A stretch of 64,000 nt of DNA from Auanema rhodensis (lineage: Eukaryota; Animalia; Nematoda). The position numbers were made by a program, and so were the translations under genes. The DNA is taken from the NCBI GenBank assembly GCA_964057225.1, contig OZ059899.1, positions 11,284,001 to 11,348,000 on the forward strand, written 5' to 3'. The notes beneath the pieces are model-generated. The model saw only the letters and a list, made by a program, of their open reading frames with translations, made no database searches and was not told the origin of the DNA. Shown here in pieces: positions 16,845 to 49,102 of the stretch (position 1 is its first letter; each line of letters opens with the position of its first letter).

Positions 16845-16889
16845 TACGAAAGTACGAAATAACAAAGCGCTGATTATAGGAAACGTGAA

Positions 16890-17302
16890 CGTTCCATGTT
16901 GGTTCCCCAGGGTTCCGGCTGGGTAACCACATGGAATTACTTTCTTTTCTTCCAAATATAAATGATAAAGAGCATAGAGAGAAAGGTTTATTTATGATAA
17001 AGTATACAAATTACAATAATAAAAGTTACATAATGATTCCTAGTCGCAGCCCAAAGGACTCGTAAGGAAACCTTATATAGTATTCCTTACGAGCATAAAA
17101 AGTGGTTATATCAGGTCCGCGGAACTTGGTTCCGCTTGAATTGGGCTTTCTTTAATTAAACTTAATATGAAAAAATGTTCGTTCATTGTTGCATTGAATT
17201 CCTGTTTCTCAAATGTAGCGTCAGCTATTTGTTTTTATAATGTTCCGTTTTATAAGCGATTGACGTTGTCAATCGCTCTACTTATAGGACACGTATGGAA
17301 CA
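16890..17302 (-). repeat. Element A 3' LTR
   Basis: No differences found versus 20676-21088. Termini TGTTCCA...TGGAACG; contains TATATAA and AATAAA. Confidence 0.96.
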
Positions 17303-17506
17303 TGCCTAATATCGAAAAAGTAGCTGACCTCAGCTACGTCGAGAAAGTGAAATTCCATGCAAATGTGAAAGTTGTATGAAATGTTTCAAAAAATAAAAGA
17401 ATACTTATAATACAGAACAATTTTATGAGAAAAAATAAAGGAAAACAATGTAATTACAAAATAATATATCATATATCATACTGGGAATCTTTCAAAAGTT
17501 CTTTTT

Positions 17507-18109
17507 TTAGTCTTCTTCATAATACTGGTGTATCTCTGGTAATGGTGATGATCCTAGGTCGTGGAGAAGATCCATAGTCTTGTTGCATAAATCCGTTTTT
17601 CTTTCCATTTCTTCCTTGGTGGTTGCTGGTGATGCCAGAAATATTTGTAGAGCATTTATAATGCTTTTTCTTGCCTCTGTGGATGGCAGTTCGCTGCAAT
17701 GTTGCAGGCTCCATTCTTGATAGGCCGAATGGGTCTCGGCAATAATCCAGTTTGGTGTCTGCTGTTCTGGTGAATCGCAACTAGGTGAATAACCTAGTTG
17801 GTCCCTTAGTTCAGCAATGGCATCTCGGATGACACCTGCTGTGTTGGTCCATGGTCCTATGCAGTGGTCAACCTCCGACAGTCGATCCTTGTCGTATTGG
17901 TAACATAGGATTTTGAGCGTTTCAGTACTGGTGTTCGCTCTTGTTAGTCCTTGAACTAACTCTTTCAGGATCTTCTCTTTCCTGGGGCGGTTGGCGATGG
18001 TATTGGCGCCTAGCTGCTTCAATTCTCTTAGTAATAGTTGAATTGAAAGCCATCTCTTTTTGGCCATCATGAGGGGAATTTCGACGGCTTCAGGAAGTTG
18101 GGTGGACAT
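17507..18109 (-). CDS. Element A ORF2, hypothetical helical protein (200 aa; frame stays open without Met up to 18310)
   Basis: ATG-initiated ORF in a GC-richer island. No family recognised. Confidence 0.65.
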   Translation of the reverse strand: MSTQLPEAVEIPLMMAKKRWLSIQLLLRELKQLGANTIANRPRKEKILKELVQGLTRANTSTETLKILCYQYDKDRLSEVDHCIGPWTNTAGVIRDAIAELRDQLGYSPSCDSPEQQTPNWIIAETHSAYQEWSLQHCSELPSTEARKSIINALQIFLASPATTKEEMERKTDLCNKTMDLLHDLGSSPLPEIHQYYEED

Positions 18110-18477
18110 TGTTATCTTTGTTACTGTTTTCTGTCCTTTTATCCTTTTAAAACTAGGTCGGTCTGTTCCTTCCTTTTTGTCGCCTCCTTTTTGATCAGTT
18201 AGGTGAAAAAGTGATGAAGATTGGTAATTAAAACTTTGCAGTGATTTTTGAAAGATTCCAAGTATGATGTATAACTTTATTTTGAAATTTTGGTTATTAA
18301 TACAATATTTTTATGAGAGTGAAAAATACAAATGTACAATAATTTGTGTAGAATTTTATGTCTTACTTAAATGAGAAAAAAATATATATATAGGTTCAAG
18401 TTTAGATGGAAATTATGAAAATTATGAAAATGGTATTATACTTTTTGTGATTTTTATATAGAAATTATGGATTTTTA

Positions 18478-19214
18478 CTATTGTTCTAGCTTCTTACTTG
18501 TAGTCCCAATAACTGTTGACGGTCTTTTCTTATGGATGACTGGTACTGTTGGTGCCACGAAGTTTGGGTCCGGGATCTGACTCTTCGAAACTCTCTTCTT
18601 CGGCTCTGTTACTGGTATGGTGCTGTGATACCTTATCGGCACATGATAAGGCTTTGCTGGCGTTGTAGGAGAATTATCTTCTAATCCCAATGCCAATTTA
18701 AGTGCTGAACTCCATTTCTTAATTGTGGGTGGCTCCTTCTTCCGTTCCTCATACAATTCTTTTCTTGCGTTTTCTTCTATTTTCTCTGATAGTTTGGTGA
18801 ATTTCGAGGAAGAGGAGAAGAAAGAATAGCAGTATTTGGGTATGAAAATGATATTTGAGAATAATCTTTACAAGGGGAAGTATTTGTGCTAACATAGCTA
18901 GAGCTTTTGATAACGTTAGAATTGCGTTTAGGAGTTTGTTTGTTAATAGACGTTTTAATTTTACTAAGAGTAATAGCGTGGCGAGAAGTTTTAATAGCTG
19001 TTGTGCCTATTTTCTTCGCGGGGGTACCCGGTATAGCGGGTGGTTTCTTTGCAGCATTAGGTCGGCGCTTCGTGTCCGGCTCATAAACATTTGGAGGTCC
19101 TCTTTTTCTTTGATTCCGCTCGAGTACTGGCTCGACGTGCGTATCATTACCGGGGGCTGCGCTCTGTGAATTTGTTTTATCCTGCGGAGGATTTTTACTC
19201 TTCGAGTCCGTCAT
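18478..19214 (-). CDS. Element A ORF1, basic K/P/S/T-rich protein, probably one ~245-aa ORF split by a frameshift near 18800-18860
   Basis: The 145-aa ORF overlaps a second frame open from 18867 to 18478. A TTTCCAG acceptor-like site lies 13 nt before the ATG. Confidence 0.55.
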
Positions 19215-19985
19215 CTTGTTGGTTTTCCTGGAAAGGAAATTATTATACCAACGATGCGAATCTTATAAAAATATATATACAACGTGAGAGGCAATATGGG
19301 GTTGTATGCGTGACGCTTGCTAGGGGGCCAGCCTGCAGCGAATCTTCTAACGGAGAATTGCTCAATCGGGTACATACACGGGCCTGTGACCGGTGCGCCC
19401 TTTCTAGGATCAAGTTCCCATCTCTCGAATAGGCGTGAAATATACGACGGTGATCTAAGCAGTATTCCCTTTCAGTCTTTCGACAAGATTAGGTGCTCAG
19501 GCCTCGAACATTCACTTTCCCAGACTTCTCTTGCCTATGAAAAATTACAGAAATCGCTCCCTTAACGAAATTCTGCTCCCCTGATTTTTCATGGTGAGAC
19601 CACTCTAACACTTTCATTCTCGACTAATTCTGTCGTAATTTTCAAATTTGCAAAAATAGGACCAAAAAGGGATCTTCAAAATCAGGAATGCGTACGTCTT
19701 ATATCAAAAATAGTGGTTGCCTCCGCTCAGTTCTCGAGACAGTCTGGTATTGCTTCTCACGGGCTACTTTTAGGATCAAAATGCAAAATTGTAAATCTTA
19801 GGTTCGGGATTCAGATAAAAAATTTCAAAATTATTTGGCTGTTTTCTGGGTTATATTAGGAAGAAGAAAAAAAATAATAGTAATAAGAGAGGGAAAAAGA
19901 TAAAATTTAAAAGAAGATAAAAGAAAAATAAAATAGGAATATAGTAGGAATATAGTAGGAATATAGTACTAGTATAGAATAGTTT

Positions 19986-19990
<5 letters not shown>

Positions 19991-20057
<67 letters not shown>
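19991..20057. repeat. (AT)n microsatellite in the element A leader
   Basis: About 33 perfect AT units. A short AGTAGGAATAT tandem lies near 19932-19965. Confidence 0.95.
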
Positions 20058-20060
<3 letters not shown>

Positions 20061-20660
20061 GAGTAATACATTTTAAAGGATAGAATAGAAATTAATGAAT
20101 TTTAATATATATAAAACAATGAATTTTTTGATGATTCATGAAAGAAATTAATTCATTTTTCATTCAAAAATTGTTTGAAACTTTATAACAAAAATTTATG
20201 AGAGATAGAATAGATTTTGATTAAAAAAACAGAAAAAGAAAAGATTGACAGAAAAAAAAATATCGAAATACCTTTCTTTGAATGAATAAATATAAAAGAA
20301 TTTCAAATTAATTTATGATAGTTATAAACAAAGTTTTTCCTCAAAAATGAAAGAAAGATCTTAGAATATGGATAAAAATCAAAATGTTTCTTTTAAATGA
20401 ATGAATATAAAATTTCAAAATTAAGTTGTTTCAAAATATATCTTTTTAAATAAATGTATATAAGATTTCAGTATTAATTTATGAATCAAAATCAAAATAA
20501 AGTTTTTTTGAATGAATGAAATAAAGAAGAGAAAGATTTCAAATTAAATTCATATAGCATAATCGAAATATAATTCTTTAATTAGATGTATGAAAGACAA
20601 CAAAATTAAATTTATGTAGCGAAATATGGTTCTTAGAGATTCGTCGGTTATAGACGAATT

Positions 20661-20675
20661 TCGGTGGAACCTCCA
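20661..20675 (-). promoter_or_regulatory. Element A primer-binding site (tRNA-Gln)
   Basis: TGGAGGTTCCACCGA abuts the 5' LTR and complements the eukaryotic tRNA-Gln 3' end (TCGGTGGAACCT-CCA). Confidence 0.88.
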
Positions 20676-21088
20676 CGTTCCATGTTGGTTCCCCAGGGTT
20701 CCGGCTGGGTAACCACATGGAATTACTTTCTTTTCTTCCAAATATAAATGATAAAGAGCATAGAGAGAAAGGTTTATTTATGATAAAGTATACAAATTAC
20801 AATAATAAAAGTTACATAATGATTCCTAGTCGCAGCCCAAAGGACTCGTAAGGAAACCTTATATAGTATTCCTTACGAGCATAAAAAGTGGTTATATCAG
20901 GTCCGCGGAACTTGGTTCCGCTTGAATTGGGCTTTCTTTAATTAAACTTAATATGAAAAAATGTTCGTTCATTGTTGCATTGAATTCCTGTTTCTCAAAT
21001 GTAGCGTCAGCTATTTGTTTTTATAATGTTCCGTTTTATAAGCGATTGACGTTGTCAATCGCTCTACTTATAGGACACGTATGGAACA
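20676..21088 (-). repeat. Element A 5' LTR
   Basis: Direct repeat of 16890-17302. Confidence 0.96.
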
Positions 21089-21638
21089 TGAATGAATGCA
21101 GATATTCTCAATTCCGATTCATTAACTAGATCGTGGTCAGCATTTTACAACATTGATAAAATAGAAACTGAGAAAAAAACATCAACAAATGACACTATTA
21201 ACTTGGTTTTTTGAACAGCTTTTTTATATTTTTTTTTCACTATGAGAGAACTTATATTTATTGCTTTTTCAAAATTTTCCATTTTTAACATTATACATCT
21301 TGACTATCACACATTGAGAACAACAGTTGGCAATGTTGGTTGTCACGTCATATTTCATGCAGTTAGATTTTCAGACACATTAATACCTTTGACCATTCTT
21401 CTTATGAGTTTTGTAACGATAGATCGTAATAGGAAATGAATTGCTATAATATGAAAAAATACAAGACATAGTCAACATTGATTTCCCCAAATAGTATCAT
21501 GTTTGCTTGTTATTCAATTAGAACACTTATTTTTTGATTGTTTTCTTCAAATATTCTTTTTTTTCTTTAACAAAGTTATGACTGAGATCAAAATTTGAAC
21601 TTACTTTTGAACAATTAAACAGAAATTTAAAAAATATT

Positions 21639-28363: not shown

Positions 28364-28903
28364 TACGAAAGTACGAAATAACAAAGCGCTGATTATAGGA
28401 AACGTGAATGAATGCAGATATTCTCAATTCCGATTCATTAACTAGATCGTGGTCAGCATTTTACAACATTGATAAAATAGAAACTGAGAAAAAAACATCA
28501 ACAAATGACACTATTAACTTGGTTTTTTGAACAGCTTTTTTATATTTCTTTTTTCACTATGAGAGAACTTATATTTATTGCTTTTTCAAAATTTTCCATT
28601 TTTAACATTATACATCTTGACTATCACACATTGAGAACAACAGTTGGCAATGTTGGTTGTCACGTCATATTTCATGCAGTTAGATTTTCAGACACATTAA
28701 TACCTTTGACCATTCTTCTTATGAGTTTTGTAACGATAGATCGTAATAGGAAATGAATTGCTATAATATGAAAAAATACAAGACATAGTCAACATTGATT
28801 TCCCCAAATAGTATCATGTTTGCTTGTTATTTAATTAGAACACTTATTTTCTGATTGTTTTCTTGAAATATTCTTTTTTTTTCTTTAACAAAGTTATGAC
28901 TGA

Positions 28904-29261
28904 CGTTCCATTCGGATGATCAATGCATTACATTCATATGACGAAGCTGTAGCAGGCGGGTTAGAGTCAGAGAATGCGAGACTGAGAGAAGACGACCCGC
29001 CCTTTTCCATATTACAACACTTCAGCTTTGCCTCAGGGACGATCATGGATGGTTGGTCGTTCTCTCTCTGTTCTCTATTAGTTTAACCTTTACTTAGTTA
29101 TATGTATCTTATTGTAATCACGTAGATATAATAAACCAATCTTTCTCGAGTCTTATGTTTATCCTTATGCTCCATGTTTAACCGCTACATCTGGAATACT
29201 ACCACGCTCATCTTGTAGACTCGATTGGTCTGTAAGATCGACGCGGGAGCATAACGGAACG
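28904..29261 (+). repeat. Element B 5' LTR (358 bp)
   Basis: CGTTCC...GGAACG. Differs from the 3' LTR by 4 substitutions and one 3-bp indel. Confidence 0.95.
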
Positions 29262-29274
29262 TGGAGGTTCCACC
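29262..29274 (+). promoter_or_regulatory. Element B primer-binding site (tRNA-Gln)
   Basis: TGGAGGTTCCACC directly after the LTR. Confidence 0.88.
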
Positions 29275-29366
29275 TCGAACTTATCACAATTTTTTTTTCT
29301 TCCTTCTCTCTAATGTTTGTGTTGTTAATTTATTTTCAAATCTCTTTCATCTCTCTTTTTCTCATA

Positions 29367-30030
29367 CCATCTACTCTATGTCTTAACACAATACGGAGGG
29401 GCCAACAACGTTAAATGGGAACAGAGGCAAGGAATCCTTTTTTTTTTTTTAAAGAAGGATTATACGTTTCGAGATTATTATTTTCCCGTTTGTTCACAAA
29501 AATTCTTTCGTCTGAACCTTTAAATTTCGTATCCTTGCTTATAACATCTGAAATGCTCTGTTACCCAACCTTGAAGCTTGATGAGGGCTTTAGGCTGAAT
29601 TAGTGAACAAATTCACCTAAAGTAATTGTTATTTTGTATTTCCCACGCCTTCTCCTTTTTAAGGATTAATTTTGGCTTGAAGGAAAGAATAACTTCGGTT
29701 ATATCTTTATATTTCGTGGATGAAGTTTGTTTTGCGATCAGGACTATTTTATTTTGCGTTACGATTTCGTTCAGACAAATTTTGCTTCTAACATCCTAAA
29801 TTTATAATCAGTACGCATGAAAAAAATTACACGGGAAACCTCACCAAAAAGGGAGGATTGTTAAATTATAGATCGCTATAGTCCGAAAAATCCTGTTGAA
29901 AAATGTTATCTCGAATTTGAATCATGATTAACACAGGTCGTGTTGGCTAAAGCATATCGGTTTGGATTTTCTCCCCTTACTGAATGTCACTTTCCTCATA
30001 CCGTTATTGTTGTTCAGAAGCATAAGACTC
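29367..30030 (+). ncRNA. Conserved structured cis-RNA in the element B leader (predicted, several pseudoknots)
   Basis: Non-coding blocks conserved with element D are pairwise complementary; some changes are compensatory. Confidence 0.7.
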
Positions 30031-30774
30031 ACGCATTGAACCTTATTCCAACTTTAATACTAGTTCTTGTAATATTTAGCCATTTAACTCTGCTTTTATT
30101 TCAAAATTCGATTTCTGATCACGAAATACCTACATTCATCATTGCGAAACGCTCTTTTGTAAAACTAATATTGCGAATCCCATGACTTTTGTTACAACGA
30201 AACATGCGAGCTACACCAAACGTATTTGAAAACCAGATTGTAAAGAAACAAAAAAATTATTTTTGGTCACAAAAGAGAAATTGGTGCACATTTATTGTTA
30301 AACTGCTCTTTTATCAAAAGCATGTTACGAATTACACCATAAGTTTTGTTGCAAGATGACACACCACATGGCCGAGAAACTAGTGTAACAAAACATAAGT
30401 TTAGTCAGCATGAGGAAAATGGTTGCATACAAATCAGTAAAATGTGCTGTAATTGAACGAATATTACGAATTACACTAAACGTTTTCGTAAAATAACAGC
30501 TTGGTCACCCCAGATGTTTTGTGAATCAGATTTTCAACTACAGAGAAAATACGGAGAGCACCAGAGTCCCGATATCACACAGTAGAAGGCGGATCCATCG
30601 CCATTGGCCAAGGCATCGACCTCATTCTCACAAGTCGATACGACACCGGTCGCTCTCCAAAGCCTTTCTCATTTTGCCTACATCCTCATCCTTATTCACC
30701 GCATTCTTTAACGTCTCAACATCCCACACGTTACCAAGCACTCAAGGTTTTTTCAAACCAAGAGTTCTAGCAAG

Positions 30775-32406
30775 GTGGCTAAGAGATTCCATTCAGCCGT
30801 ACCTATAAGTACGCATTTCGATTCCCAAGACTCAGCTCCCTTTACCAGAAGTCGAGCTCAAGCTCAAGACGTCGCTATATTAGAAGAGGAGCAGAAAGTC
30901 GACAAGAAGCCGGATAATTTCCTTATTCCTACTACTGATTCTGTCTCACCTACTGAACAACTAGGCAACCCGGACTACGTACCTACTATAGAAGAAGAGC
31001 TATCAATCATTGTTAAGGAACAAACACCGATCACTCCTAAAAAGGTACGCTCCTCTAATTCTAATAAAAATAAGAAAAATCAAAACATCAGCTACGCTTC
31101 TCTCTCTCTCTCATTAACCGAACCAACCGATTCCCCTTTACTTTCAAAAACTTCTAGCGCGGGTGGGCTTAGTTCTCTTAGAAACATTGTTACTGATCTT
31201 TTTAACCTTTCGCCTAAAGATAAAACTTTCAACACCAAGCGCAAAAGCAGATATTCATCAGTTCCCAATTATAATATCTCACCAATTCAACCACCTGCGC
31301 CAAATACCAGTATTCATCAAACTTCTACTCCCATCTTAACAACAACAGACTCACTTCCTAAGGCACCCAATAGACCTATTCCATCCACGCAAACAACCCC
31401 TATTTTGGAGACCCCACCAATAACAGGTAGAACGATCAAAATACCATCTACCCGTACGAATAACATCATGACGGAAGCTGTTTTCTCATTACCTGGGGCA
31501 GGGAAAACAACAATCGCGCAAGCCTTACTTTCGCCTTACTGTCCAACTTACGACGGCAGTCGTAACTTCCGTGATTTTACGGGTAAATTCAACTTGTTTG
31601 CTAATGCCATTGGCCTTGTTATCCCTGAAAGGTTAGCACTTCTTCCTTTGCTTCTCAAAAATGAAGCAGCAGAAGAAGCTTACAGACAATTTCCTGAACA
31701 ACTTAAAACAACTGGTTCGTGGAATGATCTGATTAGAGCACTAACATCGAAGCTCTGCCCTGAATATAACCAAGACCCTGCACTTATTAACCTTCAAAAC
31801 ACCACGCAAGGGGAATTGACAATTGATGCATACGCCCAAGCATTAAGAACAATGGCATTGAGTGCATTTGCATCTGATGACCCACATAAAGATCAAATAC
31901 TGAGATCAACATTCCTCAGAGGACTTAAAAATTCTCTAAAACCAGCTGTGATCCGAGCAAAGCCAAAATCCTTCACAGAAGCGAATGAAGCAGCTCGCTG
32001 GGAGGAATCGATAGTGAACCAAACAACAGACACGCAATCGATGTTGGTCAACGCTGTGAACAAAGCACTAGCATCCTTTGCGCGTAATGATGAGAGACGA
32101 GATAGCCAAACATTTAATCGCAATTATCAACGCGATAACCAAATGATAAGAAACAATCAAAATTATCAAAATAATCAAAATTATCAAAAAAATAAAAACT
32201 TTTCTAATTTCAATAATAATCGAAACCGTTACGGTTCTTTCGCTAATAATAATCGCCGTACAAATTATAACGAACAAGATAATAGGCAATCGAGTTCTGA
32301 CGTGCAGTCACCGAAGGATGTTCTTTCCCGCTGGATCAAGATCGGATCAACGAAGTTGAAGATTATGAAACAGTATTGCTTCACATTTGTCCATATACTT
32401 TCCTAA
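30775..32406 (+). CDS. gag: Gag of element B: S/T/P-rich N-extension, capsid-like domain, N/R-rich tail. GTG start as annotated; frame conserved from 30712; C-terminus scrambled by a deletion.
   Basis: Retrotransposon-gag-like motifs (PTYDGS; LQNTTQGELTIDAYAQALR; FLRGLK). Confidence 0.88.
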   Translation: MAKRFHSAVPISTHFDSQDSAPFTRSRAQAQDVAILEEEQKVDKKPDNFLIPTTDSVSPTEQLGNPDYVPTIEEELSIIVKEQTPITPKKVRSSNSNKNKKNQNISYASLSLSLTEPTDSPLLSKTSSAGGLSSLRNIVTDLFNLSPKDKTFNTKRKSRYSSVPNYNISPIQPPAPNTSIHQTSTPILTTTDSLPKAPNRPIPSTQTTPILETPPITGRTIKIPSTRTNNIMTEAVFSLPGAGKTTIAQALLSPYCPTYDGSRNFRDFTGKFNLFANAIGLVIPERLALLPLLLKNEAAEEAYRQFPEQLKTTGSWNDLIRALTSKLCPEYNQDPALINLQNTTQGELTIDAYAQALRTMALSAFASDDPHKDQILRSTFLRGLKNSLKPAVIRAKPKSFTEANEAARWEESIVNQTTDTQSMLVNAVNKALASFARNDERRDSQTFNRNYQRDNQMIRNNQNYQNNQNYQKNKNFSNFNNNRNRYGSFANNNRRTNYNEQDNRQSSSDVQSPKDVLSRWIKIGSTKLKIMKQYCFTFVHILS

Positions 32407-35400
32407 GACCATTAATGAGTAATCCCGGTATTACTTCAATTATTCCTATAATCAAAGGAAGACGTTTAGTAGATCCAACATACTCTCTAAAGGCATGGAT
32501 AACATCACATAAAGAAAAATTCGAATTTTTCTTCAGAATTCAAATAAATGAACATTCTGTTCGACATTTTCTCAAGCAATACGATTTCAGTGATAAAGAA
32601 GAAGCTCTGCTATATTACATAGCACAAAGAGAATTAGCCATTACTACAAAGGCAGCAATATCATACTTAACATCTGAACAGCTTCTCGAACAAATATCAG
32701 ATCGTTTGACAGTAATCGAATTCGATGAAATCATAAGGAAGAAAGAAGGTTCATATCGCGAACGAATTGAAAGCATAGCTCTCAATTTAACCAATACACC
32801 AGTTATAATTGAAGAAGGATTGACAGTTCCATCACGACAAGAAGTCCTACAAACGTTCATACAAATGCCACCAATAAGGAAACGTATACTAACTGACGAG
32901 GAAGAGAAGAAAAGCGAATTCATTAAGGCAACGATCAATTTACTAAGAGAACTAAAAACCCTCACAACAGTACGATGGAATAAAACTGCAGCATTTATTG
33001 ATGACAGAAAATTTATAAAATTGCCAGCATCACGACAATTCATGCCAAAAACAGATAAACTATTTTATGACAGGAAGAATAATTATGGAATACCGATCGG
33101 TCCACACCCTAAGCTGATCAAGCCCAGCAATCTTTCAAAGAAATTATTATTGGAAATATTTTTACCCCTGCTCAATAATGTAAAAACACCTTATACATCG
33201 AGTAGGATAACACAAGAACAACTTCAAATCTTAATGGCAGAGGAAAATGAAACAAATATTCGGCAAATCGCAACGCGGACATCCAGCGTCGCGTCAGGCG
33301 GCGCGGCTAGCGGCGCGGTTGTGACACCAGTCCAACCTTTGATCGAACAGAAGGGAACAATCCAATCAGTTACCACAATACAGCCGCAAATAACGAACAA
33401 TCCTCACACAAATGCAACAACCACCACAAGAGCACCATCATGGAGGCAACAGCCATCAACAACGGCGCCTCACACGACCGCTGCGACAACAGCACGCACA
33501 ACAACATCAACCGCTCGTTCGCCAACAACAACAAGAAGCTATGCCATATACAAAGACGCACAGATTCCAAAAATACAAGAGACAACCGAAGCCTCTCCAA
33601 CATTGATTCGAAAAAACCGAGCTTCCTCAACACCATCAGTAGAAACCTCAAATTTAGTGGAAGCAAATGCGAGATACATAGCAACGAAAATTGACTCGGT
33701 ACAAGAGTTTCGTCAAAATATATCGAACAAAATAGCCCAAGATAATTTACAGTATGCTACTACAATGATCCAAGAGGAATTGCAGAAACATTTTGAAGAA
33801 TCATACGAATCGATTTGCGAGATACAAAATCGGTATCTGGAATTATGGAAATCAATTCTACAAATTGAACCAACAATCGCAATGCGAACAATACTGGGAA
33901 GAGAAGATATAGCCGCACGGTTTGTAGGCAATGAAATTTTGCATATACATGTATGCCCTACAGTGCTAGAGAAAACCATTTATCACAATCACACCGTAAA
34001 TGGCACATGCTATCTCGAAACCCCAGTCTGGACACAAGACGGACAGTTACTGTTTGCAGCACCCGGATCCAAGGATCTTTTACCTCATGGTAAAGAAAGA
34101 AGCTGTGATCACGTACCAACAGATATCTGGTCTAGCGAAGGTGAATGGAAAGGAATTAATGGGACTGCAGACGTCAATCTTGTATCAATGTGGGACGGAC
34201 TTCATCACGAAAAAATAACACCATTAAAATTCACCGGAGCTCACTTATACACTAATTTATCGTCTCGTGTATACTCAATGACCACAGCCATAGCTTACGG
34301 TGCGAGTTTAGCATCGATTCGTCAGAATCACGTTCTTCACACAATTCACAATGATCCAAAGATATCAGCTACATTCAGTGTACTAAAGAAAAGTAGCGAC
34401 TACATATCGAAAGCTCAAGAATTCACCAAGAGCACATGGAAGTCATTCATCGATACAATTGCAGGAACGATTGAGCGAACACTAATAACGATCGGTGCAA
34501 TTACATTATTCACCATCATACTCTTTGTGATAGGTTTCATTGTAAAGATCTATTTCTTCAAACCAGTAGGCATACCAGTTATGCATATTGCACTCAAAGA
34601 TCACGACAGTGATCTACCAACATACGAAGAAACTTTGGAATTAGTTAGTCATCCGGACCAACCGATTCCAAGACACATAATGAAACAATACTATCCATCA
34701 ATGCTCACATTCATACCAATCGCACTACCATTAGTTTGCTCGATTTCCAAAAAGAAAGATCAAGCGCTACCACTTCTATGGATGACTGTTAACGATAGAC
34801 TGATCCTAACTTTATGGGACTCAGGTTCGTCCGTCAGTTACATAAGAATATCGACACTACACTACTTAGCTTTGAATGACTTTGTTAAGAAGAATACATT
34901 AAGAGCAACAACAGCGAACGGATCAGAATTTGTATTCATTGGTACTATCGACTTAACCGTCGAAATAGCCGGTTACGAAATCGACCATACATTCTTCATA
35001 TCAGACGACAAAGACTGTCCATCGCCAGCGTTGATTGGATTAGATTTCATGAAAACACTTGACTGTCAAAACATTGGCATGAAACTAAGACCATACAAAA
35101 GAACACTGGAAATTGGAAATCATGTAGTACCTTTGGCTAGCGGAATTAACGGGGATATTAACAGGATATCAAAAACTGTTAATTTGATAACCTTGGAACC
35201 GCGGAGTCTACTTCCACGACAAGTTTTTAATTTCCAAGTTCAATTAGAGAACCCAATCGGAGAAGACTTAATCGCTATGATTAAACCAAACGACAATACT
35301 CCTCTCTCACCTCGATACGACACAGCATTTCGCGATGTTAACTCCATCAATATCCAATTCCGGAACAATTCTAAAGAATTCATAGAAATACCGGCCGGCA

Positions 35401-37934
35401 CTGTGATTGCAGAAGCCGAAATAGGATCTATACCGGACTATGAAATCTTCTCAACAGAACAACAGTACGACTATATTCCACCAGAAGCAGACTGGGAAGG
35501 CAAATTACCTCACTTCCCTGGTGATTTCATGAAAGAACTTGACCTAAAAGAGGCTGATCTTACGCAACGACAAAAAGACGAACTACGAAACATCATTCGT
35601 CAACGTAAGAAGGCATTCCTCAATGAAGATAAAAAGATAGGATTGTTCAAAGGACCAGTAGAACACAAGATACCACTACGAACGGATATGGATATGCCAA
35701 AGCCACGAATTTCACGTATACCTCTCGGGAGACAAGAAGAGGTAGAAAGACAAGTCCAAGAAATGCTCGAGCAAGGGATAATAGAACGATCGACATCTTT
35801 GTTCAACAGCCCTGTCGTTCTCGTTAAGAAAAAAGACGAAACATTCCGTTTCGTTACGGATTTCCGAGCCTTAAATAACGTTACAAGAAAACAAACATAT
35901 GTGATTCCTAACATCTCTGATATCATTGACTTAGCGGCTGGATCACAATACTTTTCTAATTTTGATCTTGTTTCTGGCTTTTTCCAAATACCATTATTGA
36001 AGAAGGATAGACCACTTACATCCTTTACCACCAATAGTGGGACTTATCAATACAGGAGAATGCCTATGGGATTATGTGGTGCGCCACATACCTTTCAAAC
36101 AGCCGTGAGATATCTCCAAAGTAAATGTAAATGCCGACTATTTGTCTATTTGGACGATTTACTAGTCATATCAGACAGCGCAGAACAACACCTCGAAGAC
36201 ATCAAAGAAGTATTACTCGCTGTAGAAAGACTAGGATTTAAGATTAAACTCAAGAAATGTTCATTTGCAAGACCAGAAGTGAAATTTCTCGGACTCATTG
36301 TCGGAAGAGACGGAGTTAAGCCCGATCAACAGAAAGTTTCCGCCATCCGCGATTACCCTGCTCCTCAAACACCCACAGGAGTAAGAGCATTCTTAGGAAT
36401 GGTCGGATTCTTTAGAAAATTTATTAAAGATTTTGCACATATAGCAAGTCCGCTGTATGACCTTACTAAGCTAGACGCAGACTTCAATTGGACTAGCGAA
36501 TGTCAACATTCACTAGATAAGCTAAAGGAACGACTAATCGAAGCACCGGTACTGAAACCACCACGATCAGACCGAACTTTCATCATTGAAAGTGATGGCA
36601 GCAACATCGCCATAGGCGCAGTATTACTGCAGCCCGAAGATCCAAACGAACCATTCAAGAACTTACATCCAATTGCTTTCGCAAGTAGGAAATTAGTAAA
36701 AGCAGAACGTAACTATGCTCCCATAGAGATAGAAGCCTTAGGCTTAGTTTACGCTCTAGCACAGTTTCGAACATACATACTTGGATCACATTCAATTTGC
36801 ATCACCGATCATCGCCCATTGACAAGCTTACTAACTAGAAGAGACCTATTTGGAAGACTAGCAAAGTTCCAATTGGTCATACAGGAATACGATATTGAGA
36901 TCAAATATCGAGAAGGCAGATTAAACAAAGTCTGTGACGCACTCTCTAGATACATTGGAGATGAAGCTAACGATCCAAAGACGTCGAACAAGAAACAAAA
37001 GACGAATTCGAAAGAGAAAATTGAGACACAACAAGTAAATGTTGTGAAGTTACCAGAATTCAGCTCAATCCAACAAAATACTCCTTGGATCAAGAGAACA
37101 ATAGCTGAGATTGAATACAGAACGAAGAAAAATATGATTCAAAATGATCGTTATTGTGTTATAAACAACTTACTCTACACAAAACCAAGCGTCAAAAGAC
37201 CTCATCCAGCGTTAATATTGCCATCGGATAGTGATATAATTAACAAAATCATTGAAGAATTTCATGAAGACCCAACAATCGGGGCGCATCAAGGAATCAA
37301 CAAAACAAAAGAAGCCATATTACGAAGATTTTCCTGGACTAACATGCAGAACGACATAGCAAAATACGTAAAACAGTGCATCAAATGTGCGCAACGAAAG
37401 AAAGATCCTCATGCTATGACCGTACAACCGATGGGTCAATTTAACATACCATCAAAACCATTTGAGAGAATACATATGGATATCATGGGACCATTCCCAA
37501 CATCAAAAAGGAACAACAGCTATGTCCTCACAATACAAGAATCTTTCTCCAAATGGGCTACAACTATCGCCATACCAACAATTGTTAGTGAAGTTGTCAT
37601 TGATAGATTCCTCAGAAACTTTGTATATGTCTATGGACCACCGAATCGCTTAATAACAGACCGCGGTTCCAACTTCCTATCAAGGAAATTTGAAGACATG
37701 TGCGAAAAACTTGGTATCAAACATGAATCAACACTCCCACATCAGAAGAATTCCAATGGACAAGTAGAAAGACTTCATAGAACGTTAGAAGAAGGACTCA
37801 CACATTATCTCAACGAAGATGTCACTGATTGGGACATGTTTTTGCCAAAAATTACCTTTGCATTGAACACCACAACGCATGCAACCACAGGAATATCACC
37901 ATACGTTGTACTATTCGGAAAGAAAGCCGTTTGA
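32376..37934 (+). CDS. pol: Env remnant (gB-like core plus TM) fused to Pol (protease, RT, RNase H, integrase)
   Basis: LWDSGS protease; FDLVSGFFQ and YLDD RT; ESDGS RNase H; HHCC and D,D(35)E integrase (MDIMGP, TDRG, VERL). Confidence 0.95.
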   Translation: MLHICPYTFLRPLMSNPGITSIIPIIKGRRLVDPTYSLKAWITSHKEKFEFFFRIQINEHSVRHFLKQYDFSDKEEALLYYIAQRELAITTKAAISYLTSEQLLEQISDRLTVIEFDEIIRKKEGSYRERIESIALNLTNTPVIIEEGLTVPSRQEVLQTFIQMPPIRKRILTDEEEKKSEFIKATINLLRELKTLTTVRWNKTAAFIDDRKFIKLPASRQFMPKTDKLFYDRKNNYGIPIGPHPKLIKPSNLSKKLLLEIFLPLLNNVKTPYTSSRITQEQLQILMAEENETNIRQIATRTSSVASGGAASGAVVTPVQPLIEQKGTIQSVTTIQPQITNNPHTNATTTTRAPSWRQQPSTTAPHTTAATTARTTTSTARSPTTTRSYAIYKDAQIPKIQETTEASPTLIRKNRASSTPSVETSNLVEANARYIATKIDSVQEFRQNISNKIAQDNLQYATTMIQEELQKHFEESYESICEIQNRYLELWKSILQIEPTIAMRTILGREDIAARFVGNEILHIHVCPTVLEKTIYHNHTVNGTCYLETPVWTQDGQLLFAAPGSKDLLPHGKERSCDHVPTDIWSSEGEWKGINGTADVNLVSMWDGLHHEKITPLKFTGAHLYTNLSSRVYSMTTAIAYGASLASIRQNHVLHTIHNDPKISATFSVLKKSSDYISKAQEFTKSTWKSFIDTIAGTIERTLITIGAITLFTIILFVIGFIVKIYFFKPVGIPVMHIALKDHDSDLPTYEETLELVSHPDQPIPRHIMKQYYPSMLTFIPIALPLVCSISKKKDQALPLLWMTVNDRLILTLWDSGSSVSYIRISTLHYLALNDFVKKNTLRATTANGSEFVFIGTIDLTVEIAGYEIDHTFFISDDKDCPSPALIGLDFMKTLDCQNIGMKLRPYKRTLEIGNHVVPLASGINGDINRISKTVNLITLEPRSLLPRQVFNFQVQLENPIGEDLIAMIKPNDNTPLSPRYDTAFRDVNSINIQFRNNSKEFIEIPAGTVIAEAEIGSIPDYEIFSTEQQYDYIPPEADWEGKLPHFPGDFMKELDLKEADLTQRQKDELRNIIRQRKKAFLNEDKKIGLFKGPVEHKIPLRTDMDMPKPRISRIPLGRQEEVERQVQEMLEQGIIERSTSLFNSPVVLVKKKDETFRFVTDFRALNNVTRKQTYVIPNISDIIDLAAGSQYFSNFDLVSGFFQIPLLKKDRPLTSFTTNSGTYQYRRMPMGLCGAPHTFQTAVRYLQSKCKCRLFVYLDDLLVISDSAEQHLEDIKEVLLAVERLGFKIKLKKCSFARPEVKFLGLIVGRDGVKPDQQKVSAIRDYPAPQTPTGVRAFLGMVGFFRKFIKDFAHIASPLYDLTKLDADFNWTSECQHSLDKLKERLIEAPVLKPPRSDRTFIIESDGSNIAIGAVLLQPEDPNEPFKNLHPIAFASRKLVKAERNYAPIEIEALGLVYALAQFRTYILGSHSICITDHRPLTSLLTRRDLFGRLAKFQLVIQEYDIEIKYREGRLNKVCDALSRYIGDEANDPKTSNKKQKTNSKEKIETQQVNVVKLPEFSSIQQNTPWIKRTIAEIEYRTKKNMIQNDRYCVINNLLYTKPSVKRPHPALILPSDSDIINKIIEEFHEDPTIGAHQGINKTKEAILRRFSWTNMQNDIAKYVKQCIKCAQRKKDPHAMTVQPMGQFNIPSKPFERIHMDIMGPFPTSKRNNSYVLTIQESFSKWATTIAIPTIVSEVVIDRFLRNFVYVYGPPNRLITDRGSNFLSRKFEDMCEKLGIKHESTLPHQKNSNGQVERLHRTLEEGLTHYLNEDVTDWDMFLPKITFALNTTTHATTGISPYVVLFGKKAV

Positions 37935-38464
37935 GATTGGATAAAGATTTATACCCCGAAACAACTGAACCAAAGGAAATTTCAAAGGAGGTTGAAAATA
38001 TTGAAAAAATCCGAAGCAAACAGAAAACAATCATTCAAGAAAATTTGGAAAAGCATCAAGAATTAGCAAAAAAGAAACATGATGCTCGATTACGCACTCA
38101 CGAAAGAGATATACAAGAAGGAGACTGCGTTATGTTAGCTGTGAAAATGCACAAGCCAGGACAAAAGCTTCGGAAAGCTTATGATGGACCATTTGAAGTT
38201 ATTAATGTGAAGGGAAACATGGTTCAAATCAAAAACCTTTTCGGAAAGATCGAAGACGTTCACAAGGACAATCTCAAATTATTTAATCGAGAAACAGATG
38301 ACGGAATCGCACATAAGAACAGTACACGTACAGACAGCTCAGACGATGACAGCGATATTGAAATCATAGAGGTTATCAACGGAAACAACAACGATGAAGA
38401 CTCTTATGACGAACCAGAAGACCTTTCGGATACAAATTGGCTACCATCAAGAAAAAACCATTAA
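37925..38464 (+). CDS. Integrase C-terminus (GPY/F motif), separated by a 1-bp frameshift
   Basis: YDGPFEV. Contiguous with IN in element D (GKESRMRLD). Confidence 0.85.
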   Translation, partial: SRLRLDKDLYPETTEPKEISKEVENIEKIRSKQKTIIQENLEKHQELAKKKHDARLRTHERDIQEGDCVMLAVKMHKPGQKLRKAYDGPFEVINVKGNMVQIKNLFGKIEDVHKDNLKLFNRETDDGIAHKNSTRTDSSDDDSDIEIIEVINGNNNDEDSYDEPEDLSDTNWLPSRKNH

Positions 38465-39091
38465 CTCATGAGATTTTATTGTAAATTGTTTTGTAATAAC
38501 TTTCTTTAAAGTAATACTAGAACACAAATTTTGTAACGAGTCCTCTAAAACAAGTCACTCTTAAGTCAAAAAGTAAACTAGAGCATAATGAACACGGGTC
38601 GAACGAACCTTCCTAATTTCAACTAACTTCCCCATACTAGATGAGATGAAAAATGAAAGACATAGTTTGCACTTGAGTAATCAATGACTCAATTTGGAAG
38701 TTATTTGGTATTACGCAAAACTTTTCTTTTTTTTCTAAACTCACACAAATTGAAACAAACAACCGAGCTCTAGCAAAAAAATAGTTAACTTTTTATCTAC
38801 ACTTGTTGGAGCGTTATGCTTAAAAACTTTTTTTTTTTATTATTTTATAAGCACGTTCGCCAATAAAACATAGTCTAGTATTCGTTAAAGAGGGTTAAAA
38901 CTTTCATAATTTGGTTAAAAATTTTTTAATTCTTTTCAGATACTGATGTTTTATATTGTATTATGTTCATATTATAAGAATTTTACGTAAAATATTGTAT
39001 TGTAACATGTACTTTAATACACACATTAACCCTTCTGCTACAGTTAATCAAGTCAAAACTTTTGATTGTCGCGAGGACGCGACATAAACTC

Positions 39092-39102
39092 GAAAAAGGG
39101 CA
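39092..39102 (+). promoter_or_regulatory. Element B polypurine tract
   Basis: GAAAAAGGGCA just before the 3' LTR. Confidence 0.75.
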
Positions 39103-39463
39103 CGTTCCATTCGGATGATCAATGCATTACATTAATATGACGAAGCTGTAGCAGGCGGGTTAGAGTCAGAGAATGCGAGACTGAGAGAAGACGACCCGCC
39201 CTCCTTTTCCATATTACAACACTTAAGCTTTGCCTCAGGGACGATCATGGATGGTTGGTCGTTCTCTCTCTGTTCTCTATTAGTTTAACCTTTACTTAGT
39301 TATATGTATCTTATTGTAATCACGTAGATATAATAAACCAATCTTTCTCGAGTCTTATGTTTATCCTTATGCTCCATGTTTAACCGCTACATCTGGAATA
39401 CTACCACGCTCATCTTGTAGACTCCATTGGTTTGTAAGATCGACGCGGGAGCATAACGGAACG
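39103..39463 (+). repeat. Element B 3' LTR (361 bp)
   Basis: Direct repeat of 28904-29261. Confidence 0.95.
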
Positions 39464-40153: not shown

Positions 40154-40594
40154 TTTGGACTATGAATCCAAGAGTTATTCCAGGGGAATAGTTGTAGTAT
40201 TACCCGTTCGACGTGATACAGGAGTTAATACCGTTTAGGAGTATTAACGGAGGCTGATACTCGAAGAGAGTATTATCAGGGTTGAACTTCGCAGATTTGA
40301 GTTTAAAAGGTTTATTAAATAAAGATGGTACAGTGGTAGAAAAGTTAGATTCGAAAGTGAAGGTTTCTTGGGTTTATATATGATTTAGCTTAAGGGTGAT
40401 ATTTGATATTTGAATAGAAAGGTCACGTTAATGTAAACTATAGAGGTGATAAAAGTTCAACATTCTTTGAGAATGTTGCGCAATAGGTTAATGATACAAT
40501 TATTCGGTTAATAGATAATGGTTTAGTATTTCAGAAGAGTTATGTTTATATTGTAAATCATTATATTTTGTTAATAGTCAGGCATTTGCCGACA
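40154..40594 (-). repeat. Element C 3' LTR
   Basis: Direct repeat of 48061-48501. Confidence 0.96.
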
Positions 40595-41420
40595 TTGCCG
40601 GGCGAGGGTTGCGCTTTGAATTTTTCAAACAGCAATAAGAGAGGATAGCTGGTAGAAGGAAAGGAGCGAGAAAGGAGAGGGCTGTGTATAAGATATATGA
40701 ACATGCTGTGACTGCAGCTACGACGGGTACGATCCATTTCCAATTATTCTGGATCACTTCTATTAGAGGTTCCAAGTTGGGGAGATTCCAAGAGAGTCCA
40801 GATGTTCCATTATGTAGTTTGATCAGTTCTTCTGAAATTGTAGTGTCACTTATGTAGTGTAATCTGGTACTTAGCTGGATAAATTGCTTTGTTGCTCTTC
40901 CGCATGTTAGAGTACAATTTTCTTGTACTTTGGGTTCATTGAAGTATAGTTTTATCGTTGTGGCGGGATTTTTGTCGGAGCATCGAATTATAGTAGAAAA
41001 GGAATCGCAGTTCAGTATTGCATTTAACTCGTCCTTTGTTTCACATGTCATGTTTAGCGTTGTTCCTTCTCTGCATTTATAACATCCTGTTATCATTTGA
41101 AAATCTGAAAAACAAGGATGTCTATTAGTGTATAGACTTTCGATGCTAAATTGCGGGTTTTGCATTGTGAGCGTTGATTCTTCCATTTTTGATAGAACTG
41201 TTATAGTTCCTGCTTCTTTTGTTATCCTATAATTCGTATTAATTTTTGGAAGCTCATATTTTTTCAGTTCTCTTTGCGTCGCTGAATCGCAATTGCAAGA
41301 GAGCTGTGCTGCGGCCCCCAAACATGGGCAAGGCTTTCTTATGTGGCATGCATTAAACTTATCTGCCGCCATTCTTGCATTGCTGCATATAACAGCTGGT
41401 TTTATTTGCTCCGTTATCAT
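40578..41420 (-). CDS. env: C-terminal part of the phlebovirus-Gc-like envelope with TM anchor (frameshifted continuation)
   Basis: Cys-rich (GCYKCREG), with a hydrophobic TM. Removing one base of the A8 run at 41443-50 joins it to the polyprotein. Confidence 0.85.
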   Translation of the reverse strand: MITEQIKPAVICSNARMAADKFNACHIRKPCPCLGAAAQLSCNCDSATQRELKKYELPKINTNYRITKEAGTITVLSKMEESTLTMQNPQFSIESLYTNRHPCFSDFQMITGCYKCREGTTLNMTCETKDELNAILNCDSFSTIIRCSDKNPATTIKLYFNEPKVQENCTLTCGRATKQFIQLSTRLHYISDTTISEELIKLHNGTSGLSWNLPNLEPLIEVIQNNWKWIVPVVAAVTACSYILYTALSFLAPFLLPAILSYCCLKNSKRNPRPAMSANA

Positions 41421-41433
41421 GTAGTTGTTCGTC

Positions 41434-44400
41434 TCAGATGTTAAAAAAAATTTTGTTGTACAGTTCCGTTGTTGCTTTTGCTGTGACTGACGAAATCTGT
41501 AATGATATTCCGTGAAACTCGTATTTTCGGTAGGGCTGTAGCAAAATGTCGTATTTTTGAGTGTTGTTGAGGTATATGATCGTTAATTTTGCTTGCACTT
41601 CTTGCTTCCATTGTATGCATTTGATCTCTTCGTATACTTCTTTGTTCTCTGGTTGATAAGTTGGTCTAAATAAAATGCATCCTTCTATAGGAAGTCCACA
41701 GCTGTTGAATAGTCCTCCTCCGGCTCTGGTGCAGTAGGTTCTTCCAGGATTTTCGTATGCAGAATATAGTTCGGATACAAATGTATCCTGTCGAATATCA
41801 TCGCATCCGGTGCCCCAGGGGCAATGAGTTGTACCGGCGCATCTATGAGAGGAGTGAATGGTTAGGTTAGTTATTCTAGTGAATCCTTGCGAAACTTTTT
41901 GGCATGAAAATTTATGTTGAATTAGTTGAATTTCTAGTTTTCCTATAGTGGAGTTTTGATATTTGATGTAGGAGCAGAGAGAGTTTTGTAAGGGATTGAA
42001 TGAAATTTCTTCGTTGGTTATTTTGGTGCAGTTTTGTATATCGTCGCAAAAGATTTCTATGTTTTTATGAGCGTTGGGGGATCCACAAGCTTGCGCCTGG
42101 CATATGAGAAAAAAGAGTGTGAATAGGAGGGAAGGGATGTACGAAATGGTGGGCTCGTTCTGTCGGCGGTATGTTCTTAGTCTTCTGTAGATTAGACCAC
42201 AGCTAATGAATAAAAGAGCGCAGCCAATTAATGGCGTAAGTACTATAAGAATAGCTAAGATTGGATTACAGTGAGGATTGCCTATGATATGTAGGATGAA
42301 TGGCGGTGGGAAGTCACATGGGTGAGGAAGTTTGCATGTTTGATTCTGAGTTGACTCCAAGTTGAAGCGTGAAACGGATGCTGTTTTTGGTAAAACTGAA
42401 ATAGGTAGTGGGATTATTTCGGATTGGTGTGCAGAGAGATTATGGCAGCTGGAGTCGATGCATATTGTTGAGTGGTTTGGTTGTGCTGGAAATACCACTT
42501 GTGATGTTGAACACCTGATTATCGGTTGGGTCATAGCAACTGAAAATATTTGTATTAGCATCAGAAAACGAAAAATGTTCCTTAGCCGGTTCGGATTGGT
42601 TGGTGTGTGTGAAAGATAATTGACAGTTATTTCCTGTGATTCTCTTCCTTTGTCGAAATTGTCCTTGAGCTCGAGTGGGTAGAGTTTTTCAACTGGTTTC
42701 GTGAGTTCTTTGCCGTTTCCTAATTTAATTCTTGCGGATCTGAATATGTTATCCGAAGACGGTAGTAGGGCAGTAATGCGTGCCATTTGCCAGTTGCATC
42801 TGTTCAGGTTATCTTCTTCCACAAGGACCACCTCATTTAGCGTTGGGTGGTTAGAACTTCTGTGCGTTTGTTTTGTGGATGCGTGGGCATTACGGAGACA
42901 TAGAAGATATTCCTTGGACCACCGATCCCAGAATGATTCTGCTATAATTTCCACTTTCTGCAGATTTTCAAATGCTTCTTTATTCGTTTGTATTGGGTTT
43001 GGTTCATCCAAGGCTTGTCCCAATTGTTCTACGCTACCTCCTGGTACGAGAACGGGGCTGCCGTTATTTAAGAAATCTGCTGGTGTCAGGGGTCGGTCGT
43101 CTACATTATCTGAATTTGTATAGGTGATCGGTCTGGAATTTATTATTCCTTCGATCTTTATAATTGCCGTCGTTAGTTGGTCTTTGTTGACCAATTTAAG
43201 CTGCAATGATTTGTAGAGCGAAGTTTTTACTATCGCAACCAGTCGCTCCCATACTCCTCCAGTCCATGGGGCACTGGGAGTGTTAAAAATCCATGTAATG
43301 TGGTGTTTTTGTAAAAATTTTGTGAAACTTGTTCTATGTTCACTATCATAAGTTTCTAACATGTTAAGTATCTTAGCCGAGTGAACAAAATTGCTCCCAT
43401 TGTCCGAACGGATAACGTCCGGTAATCCTCTGCGAGCTACGAATCTTATAAATGCATTGAGGAATGTATTAGAGGTCATGTCGTTAATTGGTTCGAGGTG
43501 AACTGCCCGAACCGTTAGACATGTAAAGATTACTATATATATTTGTTCACTTTTTCTATATTTAATGGGTCCGATACAGTCTAGCCCCGTATGCTTAAAT
43601 GGCATAGCTTTTGTAATTCGATCTTCTGGCAGAGGTGCCAGAAAATCTGTGGTGAATGGGCGACTGAGTATTTTTTGACACGGGACGCACTTTTTTATAA
43701 TTGATTTGCATACCTGCCTTGTTCCTGCCATGAAGAATTTTTGAAGAAATAGGCTGATCATATGTGTAGTTCCCAGGTGTGCATTTTCTTTATGTATGGA
43801 AAGCAAAATTAGTTTACCTAAATCAGATTTTTTGGGTAGTAAAAAGGGGTACTTTGTGGATGCAGGCAATTTGGCGTTTAGCAAACGTGTTTGAATTATA
43901 CGTAATCCGTTGTTATCCTTGGTGGTGCGAAATTGCTTTATTTCCGATTGTTTTAATTTTTTCTGGGCCTCTTGTATGAGAAAGAGATCTGCGGTTTGGG
44001 ATTGCTGCTTTTCCTTTTGCGCTCGTTGTAGCATGGTTGATGTTGGAGTTTTGTTTATTTTCTGCAATAGTACTAGCGCGGCTTTAAATACCAAACCTGT
44101 GGTCCGTTGTAGTTTGGAGTACGAACTAAATCTTCCTGGTTGTATTATTGACTCGTATGGTTGAATATCAGTAGATACGGGTAGAATGAGCATGGGGGGT
44201 TCGTCTTCGTCTATTGGAGTGGTGAGTTCCTTTATTGGTCTGTTGTCCATTTGTGATAGCCATGGTGGAGAAAACAACCAGCGTTCCTTTAACAGATTTT
44301 GGTCTGTTGTCCCTCTAGTTCCAATGTCTGCTGGATTATGGTCGGTATCAACATAGTGGAAGTGTAGTGAAGCTTTTTGAGCTTCCAACCTTCTTCCTAT

Positions 44401-47796: not shown

Positions 47797-48046
47797 TGCT
47801 ACCGTTTTTTGATTTTTTGATGCAAAATGTATGACTTTTGAATTTCTTAGTTGAATTGTTGCAAAATGTGTTGGTAACTTTTTTGATTTTGAGATTGAGA
47901 TAGAGATAGAGATTCAGATGAGATGAGATGAAGCAAAGAAGTTTAAAGAATGTGATGATGAAGAAAAGTAAACAAAGGAACTGAAAAATAAAAAGTGAGA
48001 ATAGAAAATAATACAAATAAGGTTTCTAACAATTGATACCTGATTT

Positions 48047-48059
48047 GGACGATGCACCA
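48047..48059 (-). promoter_or_regulatory. Element C primer-binding site (tRNA-Gly-like)
   Basis: TGGTGCATCG 1 nt after the LTR, complementary to the tRNA-Gly(GCC) end CGATGCA-CCA. Confidence 0.75.
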
Positions 48060-48060
48060 A

Positions 48061-48501
48061 TTTGGACTATGAATCCAAGAGTTATTCCAGGGGAATAGTT
48101 GTAGTATTACCCGTTCGACGTGATACAGGAGTTAATACCGTTTAGGAGTATTAACGGAGGCTGATACTCGAAGAGAGTATTATCAGGGTTGAACTTCGCA
48201 GATTTGAGTTTAAAAGGTTTATTAAATAAAGATGGTACAGTGGTAGAAAAGTTAGATTCGAAAGTGAAGGTTTCTTGGGTTTATATATGATTTAGCTTAA
48301 GGGTGATATTTGATATTTGAATAGAAAGGTCACGTTAATGTAAACTATAGAGGTGATAAAAGTTCAACATTCTTTGAGAATGTTGCGCAATAGGTTAATG
48401 ATACAATTATTCGGTTAATAGATAATGGTTTAGTATTTCAGAAGAGTTATGTTTATATTGTAAATCATTATATTTTGTTAATAGTCAGGCATTTGCCGAC
48501 A
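48061..48501 (-). repeat. Element C 5' LTR
   Basis: TGTCGG...GTCCAAA. Confidence 0.96.
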
Positions 48502-49102
48502 ATGGCGGCTACGAAAGTACGAATTAACAAAGCGCTGATTATAGGAAACGTGAATGAATGCAGATATTCTCAATTCCGATTCATTAACTAGATCGTGGTC
48601 AGCATTTTACAACATTGATAAAATAGAAACTGAGAAAAAAACATCAACAAATGACACTATTAACTTGGTTTTTTGAACAGCTTTTTTATATTTCTTTTTT
48701 CACTATGAGAGAACTTATATTTATTGCTTTTTCAAAATTTTCCATTTTTAACATTATACATCTTGACTATCACACATTGAGAACAACAGTTGGCAATGTT
48801 GGTTGTCACGTCATATTTCATGCAGTTAGATTTTCAGACACATTAATACCTTTGACCATTCTTCTTATGAGTTTTGTAACGATAGATCGTAATAGGAAAT
48901 GAATTGCTATAATATAAAAAAATACAAGACATAGTCAACATTGATTTCCCCAAATAGTATCATGTTTGCTTGTTATTCAATTAGAACACTTATTTTTTGA
49001 TTGTTTTCTTGAAGTATTCTTTTTTTTTCTTTAACAAAGTTATGACTGAGATCAAAATTTGAACTTACTTTTGAACAATTAAACAGAAATTTAAAAAATA
49101 TT

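Follow-up and report, generated by a model that had tools for sequence, protein, structure and literature searches.

A knotted RNA domain predicted in the leader of a nematode Ty3/gypsy element

The 650 nucleotides that follow the primer binding site (PBS) of a Ty3/gypsy retroelement from Auanema rhodensis are predicted to form an unusually knotted RNA on the sense strand, with at least six crossing helices. That this domain is real and largely folded we consider highly probable. We take it to be a real and unusual structured element. Our preferred reading, held tentatively and at somewhat less than an even chance, is that full-length genomic RNA uses it, much like Psi, as a scaffold in pairing and packaging. 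The window, that is the whole stretch of 64,000 nucleotides analysed here, holds two copies of the domain, in elements B and D, with the following parts:

29380 to 30028, plus strand: copy B of the domain, modelled as 142 pairs in 20 helices (23 helix pairs cross each other; drawn with three bracket layers)
52924 to 53609, minus strand: copy D of the domain, with about 75% identity to copy B
29367 to 29379, plus strand: conserved flank immediately ahead of the closing helix on its 5' side, left unpaired by the model
29950 to 29992, plus strand: stretch that is largely invariant and retained in further families, with most positions left unpaired by the model

A preliminary description of this DNA had named 13 helices in copy B, and all 26 of their strands are found there. 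Eleven of the 13 pairs are perfectly complementary and two are bulged. The further claim that every strand is retained in D (52920-53622, minus strand) holds exactly for 25 of the 26; the remaining one, GGGAACAGAG, reads GGGTACAGATG in D, a variant that still pairs by a one-base shift in register. The named helices were, however, not fully compatible with one another, as A29385 and A29610 had each been placed in two of them. Our model, derived from B and D and spanning 29380-30028, was built after such double-counted bases had been taken out, and includes crossings that had not been named before, among them 29570/29682 with 29643/29719 and 29401/29947 with 29887/29970. To make it fully nested at least six helices would have to be removed, as judged by hand from the list of crossings. 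The B-only helix TTCGAGAT/ATCTCGAA was omitted because D keeps only 4 of its 8 pairs, and CATCC/GGATG and GGGAG/CTCCC, which are possible alternatives, were left out since they clash with modelled helices. The words AAGCATA and TAACATC occur twice each inside the domain in both copies. The domain is wholly non-coding and separated from the PBS by 105 nt; the invariant stretch at 29950-29992 is a candidate protein-binding site or tertiary core.

The excess of complementarity in the conserved columns is above chance. When only columns identical in B and D are considered and at least two G/C are required per match, there are seven perfect reverse-complement matches of 7 nt or longer, as compared to no reversed, no complemented and three direct matches. 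By length, 13, 7 and 2 matches of at least 6, 7 and 8 nt are observed, against means of 3.7, 0.9 and 0.2 under a first-order Markov null with the same mask; the observed numbers were reached in 0, 0 and 19 of 1000 runs, respectively, and the highest count at 7 nt or more was 5. Shuffling the conserved columns, a check named in the preliminary description, gave 1.6 +/- 1.2 matches with a maximum of 5 in 200 shuffles, and eight coding windows of equal length contain 0-2 such matches each. Tests on single sequences are weak, because nested minimum free energy z-scores are null (-0.73 for B and -0.42 for D) and the numbers of strong helices exceed expectation only modestly (13 and 11, where about 6 +/- 2.5 are expected), a control spacer reaching 10. 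Of 13 B-only helices, 8 are kept in D compared with 32% expected (p=0.026, in a comparison that is not fully independent). A greedy helix-energy test was discarded: all 300 block shuffles scored below the leader, yet one of four pol controls also beat 60 of 60, a half-reversed control equalled the observed value and the overlap rule lost real helices.

Comparison of the two copies shows 133 of the 142 pairs to be invariant; three have changed on both sides, three on one side and three are broken in one copy. The structure-preserving changes reported earlier are borne out, with G-C replaced by A-U in CCACG/CGTGG and U-A by C-G in CTTGAAGC/GCTTGAAG, a tetraloop exchanged between B and D, and the hairpin after GCAAGGA kept with unrelated sequence. 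All one-sided changes create or remove a G-U pair on the sense strand, where the antisense strand would have C-A. A two-sided change is found in each of the mutually crossing helices 29570/29682 and 29643/29719, and the single mismatch of B in the former is absent from B-type contigs of four runs. Covariation between these two sequences is not significant, since shuffling gave as high a score in 58 of 500 trials. As the long crossing helices do not vary, none of them is backed individually by covariation; likewise, the three 8-bp helices derived from a loop and the GCGATC/GGACTAT pair have the complementarity statistics as their one line of evidence. Paired positions are identical between B and D in 271 of 284 cases and unpaired positions in 226 of 365, a comparison that is circular in that the model came from these copies.

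Further relatives of the element family are present in public contigs and provide held-out sequences. A third family, which we infer from two contig sets joined by common depth and variants, matches in blocks only (B 29385-29413 and 29558-29707; D 52947-52990, 53052-53074 and 53152-53331). Substitutions among those listed were counted in two non-overlapping intervals away from the ends of the pieces (B 29592-29673 and D 53189-53290), which took in 11 of the 21 and 18 of the 25 differences that these pieces show. Changes so listed affect 5 of 78 paired as compared to 24 of 106 unpaired positions (p=0.004), and within the columns identical in B and D they affect 3 of 72 and 11 of 55, respectively (p=0.008). 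One of the five changes at paired positions leads to G-U, two reproduce the state of the other copy in the window, and two lie at helix ends with their partners out of view. The third family also has a third tetraloop on an intact stem. The idea of a large, multiply pseudoknotted RNA is supported by the complementarity statistics and by this family, while covariation has so far not contributed significantly.

But could the conserved blocks be mainly DNA- or protein-binding sites, with only a few local hairpins folding and the crossing helices partly a coincidence? This we consider quite improbable. Most pairs are indeed invariant, the nested z-scores are null, and about four six-base matches are expected by chance. 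Moreover, the best-conserved block, D 52947-52990, has a single difference in 44 nt in the third family, and 27 of its positions are unpaired in the model as compared to 17 that are paired; another family keeps D 52954-52988, where 13 of 35 positions are paired, and primary sequence therefore matters too. However, binding sites would not readily account for an enrichment of reverse-complement matches that is missing from reversed or complemented ones, for two-sided and G-U changes that preserve pairs, for loops that are exchanged while stems stay, or for a third family that spares paired columns. A metagenome scan with a 14-mer, which is too short a query, returned 119 loci, none of them homologous by blastn or nhmmer.

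The element that carries the domain is a Ty3/gypsy Gag-Env-Pol element, with LTRs, a PBS, gag, a gB-type env and the order protease, RT, RNase H, integrase all present. Its main parts outside the leader are:

28903 to 29261, plus strand: 5' LTR of element B, with termini CGTTCC...GGAACG and not TG...CA, 98% identical to 39102-39463
39102 to 39463, plus strand: 3' LTR of element B
53728 to 54064, minus strand: LTR of element D, common to its two tandem units, with the PBS next to it at 53727
29262 to 29274, plus strand: PBS, an identical 13-mer in B, D and a third element of the window, A
32301 to 38464, plus strand: Env (gB/Monjiviricetes-type), protease, RT, RNase H and integrase, in pieces in copy B (frames 32301-37934 and 37829-38464)

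Element B extends from 28903 to 39463 on the plus strand, and D lies on the minus strand as two tandem units sharing one LTR; the two are about 75% identical and both encode Gag, the gB/Monjiviricetes-type glycoprotein, protease, RT, RNase H and integrase in this order. The PBS of B, D and A presumably matches tRNA-Gln. Pol is 49-53% identical to proteins of Caenorhabditis, Heterorhabditis and Diploscapter, and 49-64% to its best relatives when Auanema is included; relatives sought in viral contigs were not found there. The host thus likely belongs to the rhabditid nematodes. Gag-Env-Pol elements with the same gene order and a gB-type Env are known from nematodes (PMC13524379, citing Sacco 2022), and differ from the present case in that leader RNA structure is not mentioned in the accessible part of that report. 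Cer1, which uses a tRNA-Pro PBS and has an SL1 site and CERV, is another element, as far as described in the available text of PMC3315495.

Between the domain and the coding region lie further features that bear on function:

30111 to 30122, plus strand: conserved island in a diverged spacer, with an 8-bp complement to 29736-29743 and a 6-nt palindrome
30517 to 31467, plus strand: zone free of AUG in all frames (none observed, 10.9 expected in B; none observed, 9.5 expected in D1)
30582 to 30597, plus strand: conserved motif GTAGnAGGCGG, with a second occurrence 46 nt into the LTR (28949)
30712 to 32406, plus strand: Gag frame, opening right after a stop without an AUG and lacking a CCHC knuckle
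38934 to 38939, plus strand: splice-acceptor word TTTCAG, at an aligned position in the 3' UTRs of B and D

The AUG-free zone of B measures 951 nt and that of D1 (62748-63601) 854 nt, with Poisson p values of about 2e-5 and 8e-5, and zone and AUG-less frame start some 490 nt past the stem of the domain. The first in-frame AUG of gag is at 31468, 756 nt into the frame, in both B and D. Over the first 31 gag codons the differences by codon position are 2, 3 and 9; they are thus mostly in third positions and indicate coding constraint from the first codons on despite the lack of an AUG. Together with the related gene models P0002, P0005 and P0009, which have Met-poor stretches ahead of the capsid motif (P0005 also shares the word HVTK near its start), this suggests a family-wide non-AUG N-terminal extension of Gag. 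The leader of B contains 19 AUGs, and D-type contigs lack the last upstream AUG of the D copy in the window. An acceptor of the form TTT[CT]AG occurs neither in B 29262-31470 nor in D 52300-53727. The GTAGnAGGCGG motif is possibly an internal promoter element or a landing site.

These features form the basis for the strongest rival to a packaging scaffold, namely that the domain would be a new kind of IRES or shunt scaffold which brings ribosomes to the AUG-free zone for a non-AUG start, an N-terminally extended Gag and leaky scanning to the AUG at 31468. It ranks first among the rivals because nothing else yet explains how ribosomes gain access to the AUG-free zone and because there is a precedent in RTBV, where a shunt is combined with an AUU start and with scanning through about 900 nt that lack an AUG (accessible part of PMC5902531); even so, we regard it as unlikely. 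The constraint on the first gag codons, the two AUG-free zones, the many AUGs and missing acceptor of the B leader and the Met-poor gene models all favour such an entry. Caulimovirid and RTBV leaders also resemble the present one in being long and rich in AUGs and in having a basal stem with a tiny uORF at its foot (PMC5902531, same part), and B and D share a two-codon uORF, with its ATG at 29378, that begins in the last two bases of the conserved flank, at the foot of the closing helix. However, this uORF overlaps the stem instead of ending 7-8 nt before it, so that the geometry departs from that of a pararetroviral shunt; the domain is pseudoknotted and not one long hairpin; and 6-9 AUGs lie between stem and AUG-free zone. 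Strong conserved pairing between domain and AUG-free zone was not detected either, the best candidate being 6 bp with three G-U, and the LTR-shared motif at the start of the zone would point to an internal promoter instead.

In an IRES of the dicistrovirus or HCV type the structure abuts the start codon with no AUG between. The IRES role raised in the preliminary description fails in this start-adjacent form, as in neither B nor D is this geometry found: from the end of the domain to the gag frame it is 684 nt in B and 532 nt in D, with 9 and 6 AUGs in between. A connection with translation might nevertheless run through the conserved island at 30111-30122, whose duplex with 29736-29743 is predicted in both copies (-14.0 and -10.7 kcal/mol). 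Such pairing would compete with the GCGATC/GGACTAT pseudoknot; we mention it as a lead only, as it is 1 of 13 candidate long-range helices in the scan. The island also contains the palindrome TGATCA, without a stem common to the copies. Neither this island nor the AUG-less opening of gag figured in the preliminary description.

Among the three roles offered earlier (packaging or dimerization scaffold, IRES, ribozyme) the scaffold fits best with the position of the domain. Retroviral Psi and dimer initiation sites lie just after the PBS (accessible part of PMC12789967), as does the present domain at 105 nt, and Ty1 has a Gag-bound pseudoknot at a comparable 5' position, for which a packaging role could, however, not be shown (PMC4974528, in part). 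All modelled helices would form together on the sense RNA as one closed domain. One or more loop-loop helices, for instance the TTGTTCAC/GTGAACAA kiss, may then swap between two genomes, and Gag, which lacks a zinc knuckle, might read the fold together with the invariant unpaired stretch near 29950-29992. Gag itself would be translated from an RNA whose entry point is the AUG-free zone, past the end of the domain, so that the domain would stay out of the message being translated. The distance and the AUGs that part the domain from the gag frame speak for a scaffold. Against it stand the 133 invariant pairs, the three that break in one copy, the lack of significance in the covariation control, the null z-scores of nested folding, the modest p=0.026 for B-only helices kept in D, the Ty1 precedent, and element A, which has the same PBS and no detectable homologue of the domain (7 helices counted versus 8.2 under the null). 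Furthermore, the leader has no canonical acceptor, which leaves downstream translation entry unexplained and might mean that entry needs the domain. Psi and Ty1 leaders resemble the domain in combining a structured cis-element by the PBS with kissing and pseudoknot contacts (PMC12789967 and PMC4974528, as far as accessible). The domain differs from them in being a closed, non-coding 650-nt unit far from gag with at least six crossing helices, in having no self-complementary loop with a GC dyad among its modelled hairpins, and in going with a Gag without CCHC knuckle.

Could the domain act in nuclear export instead? As an export or splice-suppression element for the unspliced genome, comparable to the MTE of MusD or a CTE, it would have a precedent in topology: the MTE, of about 400 nt, is a large retroelement RNA that needs a kissing loop and a complex pseudoknot (available part of PMC4588558), and the topology predicted for the domain would fit this. 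Cer1 illustrates that nematode gypsy genomes require dedicated export (PMC10309623 and PMC3315495, in part). Conservation of the TTTCAG word in the 3' UTR makes it likely that the genome retains an intron, and may hint at subgenomic RNA made by splicing, as in copia. Its D equivalent lies near 54230, similar short hydrophobic codons come next in both copies, and a GTAAG word is conserved at 36381. We nonetheless judge an export role to be distinctly unlikely. Known elements of this kind sit in pol, in env or near the 3' LTR, which the MTE adjoins, and not after the PBS (PMC4588558, same part), whereas the domain is in the 5' leader; the MTE is also smaller, with two tertiary contacts, and its homology to the domain was compared via Rfam only. 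In addition, spliced RNA was not seen in contigs from two runs, guessed to be RNA, that span the D leader without splice-like skips, from which neither expression nor splicing follows.

The strands of the group I P7 helix are GACUA/UAGUC. The GGACTAT/ATAGTCC helix with its flanks (CAGGACTA, GCTATAGTCC) fits short patterns of these strands in both copies, and the block TCGC-TATAGTCC is exact in the third family, both of which would favour a ribozyme with a group I-like core. We consider such a ribozyme very improbable: at E up to 10, models of group I, GIR1, group II, hammerhead, HDV and twister find no match. A conserved bulged base at the guanosine site is missing, as are the P3-P7 order of group I and any space for P4-P6 ahead of the 5' strand, and the crossing partner comes ahead of the 3' strand and not after the 5' strand. 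Besides, the chance of the 8-mer is about 1% (by hand) and eight patterns were tried. A known ribozyme class was thus not found, and core motifs of hammerhead, group II and RNase P are absent from B and D.

The earlier impression that no known family is involved agrees with our searches, as no Rfam family reaches its gathering threshold in the domain, Rfam yields only tRNAs in the window and no credible match at E up to 10 in either copy of the domain, and a description of such a retroelement RNA was not found in a literature search that covered few subscription papers. Detailed knowledge of structured cis-elements in LTR retroelements comes from a few models (Ty1, MusD, retroviruses). For an animal Ty3/gypsy lineage, a conserved domain so large and so knotted is new to Rfam and to the literature searched. 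In scale and ornateness it recalls ROOL and GOLLD, which share with it the size (659 nt for ROOL env-120), several pseudoknots and kissing loops and carriage by mobile elements, and which differ as stand-alone bacterial and phage RNAs from a domain without Rfam match that sits in a eukaryotic retroelement transcript (PMC12286853, accessible part). It is conceivable, if rather doubtful, that such an RNA with at least six pseudoknots pairs genomes by self-assembly without zinc knuckles, or that the island at 30111-30122 acts as a switch recruiting ribosomes to the distant non-AUG gag start; if true, the latter would be a new class of IRES. The domain is a ready target for probing and cryo-EM, and together with the AUG-less gag frame it offers a testable case of a retroelement sorting one transcript between translation and packaging.

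The surroundings of the two elements are of interest as well. The window contains a tandem array of tRNA-Ile genes, with units about 665 bp apart, that is broken by LTR elements; the array, at 1-28900 and 48500-51850, has 42 tRNA-Ile(AAT) genes and hosts four kinds of LTR insertion. Sequence of tRNA genes adjoins the 3' LTR of B as well as element C. The two junctions of B fall at different points of the tRNA repeat, and a target-site duplication was not seen. Element C (40154-48508, minus strand) is a Bel/Pao element with a phlebovirus-type G2 glycoprotein and LTRs that are 99.6% identical, and it resembles the Atlas group as far as the available descriptions go. Element A (16889-21090, minus strand) has identical 416-bp LTRs (16889-17304 and 20675-21090), which end in inverted repeats of the CGTTCC...GGAACG type like those of B and D, and its longest ORF has no Pfam match. 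It contains a GC-richer stretch of 560 nt (about 19270-19830) followed by an acceptor-like word TTTCCAG, and is possibly a non-autonomous element with a structured RNA of its own. Finally, the word CGCTACAT is common to the LTRs of B, D and A and to the leader of A (29183, 53806, 21006 and 20621).
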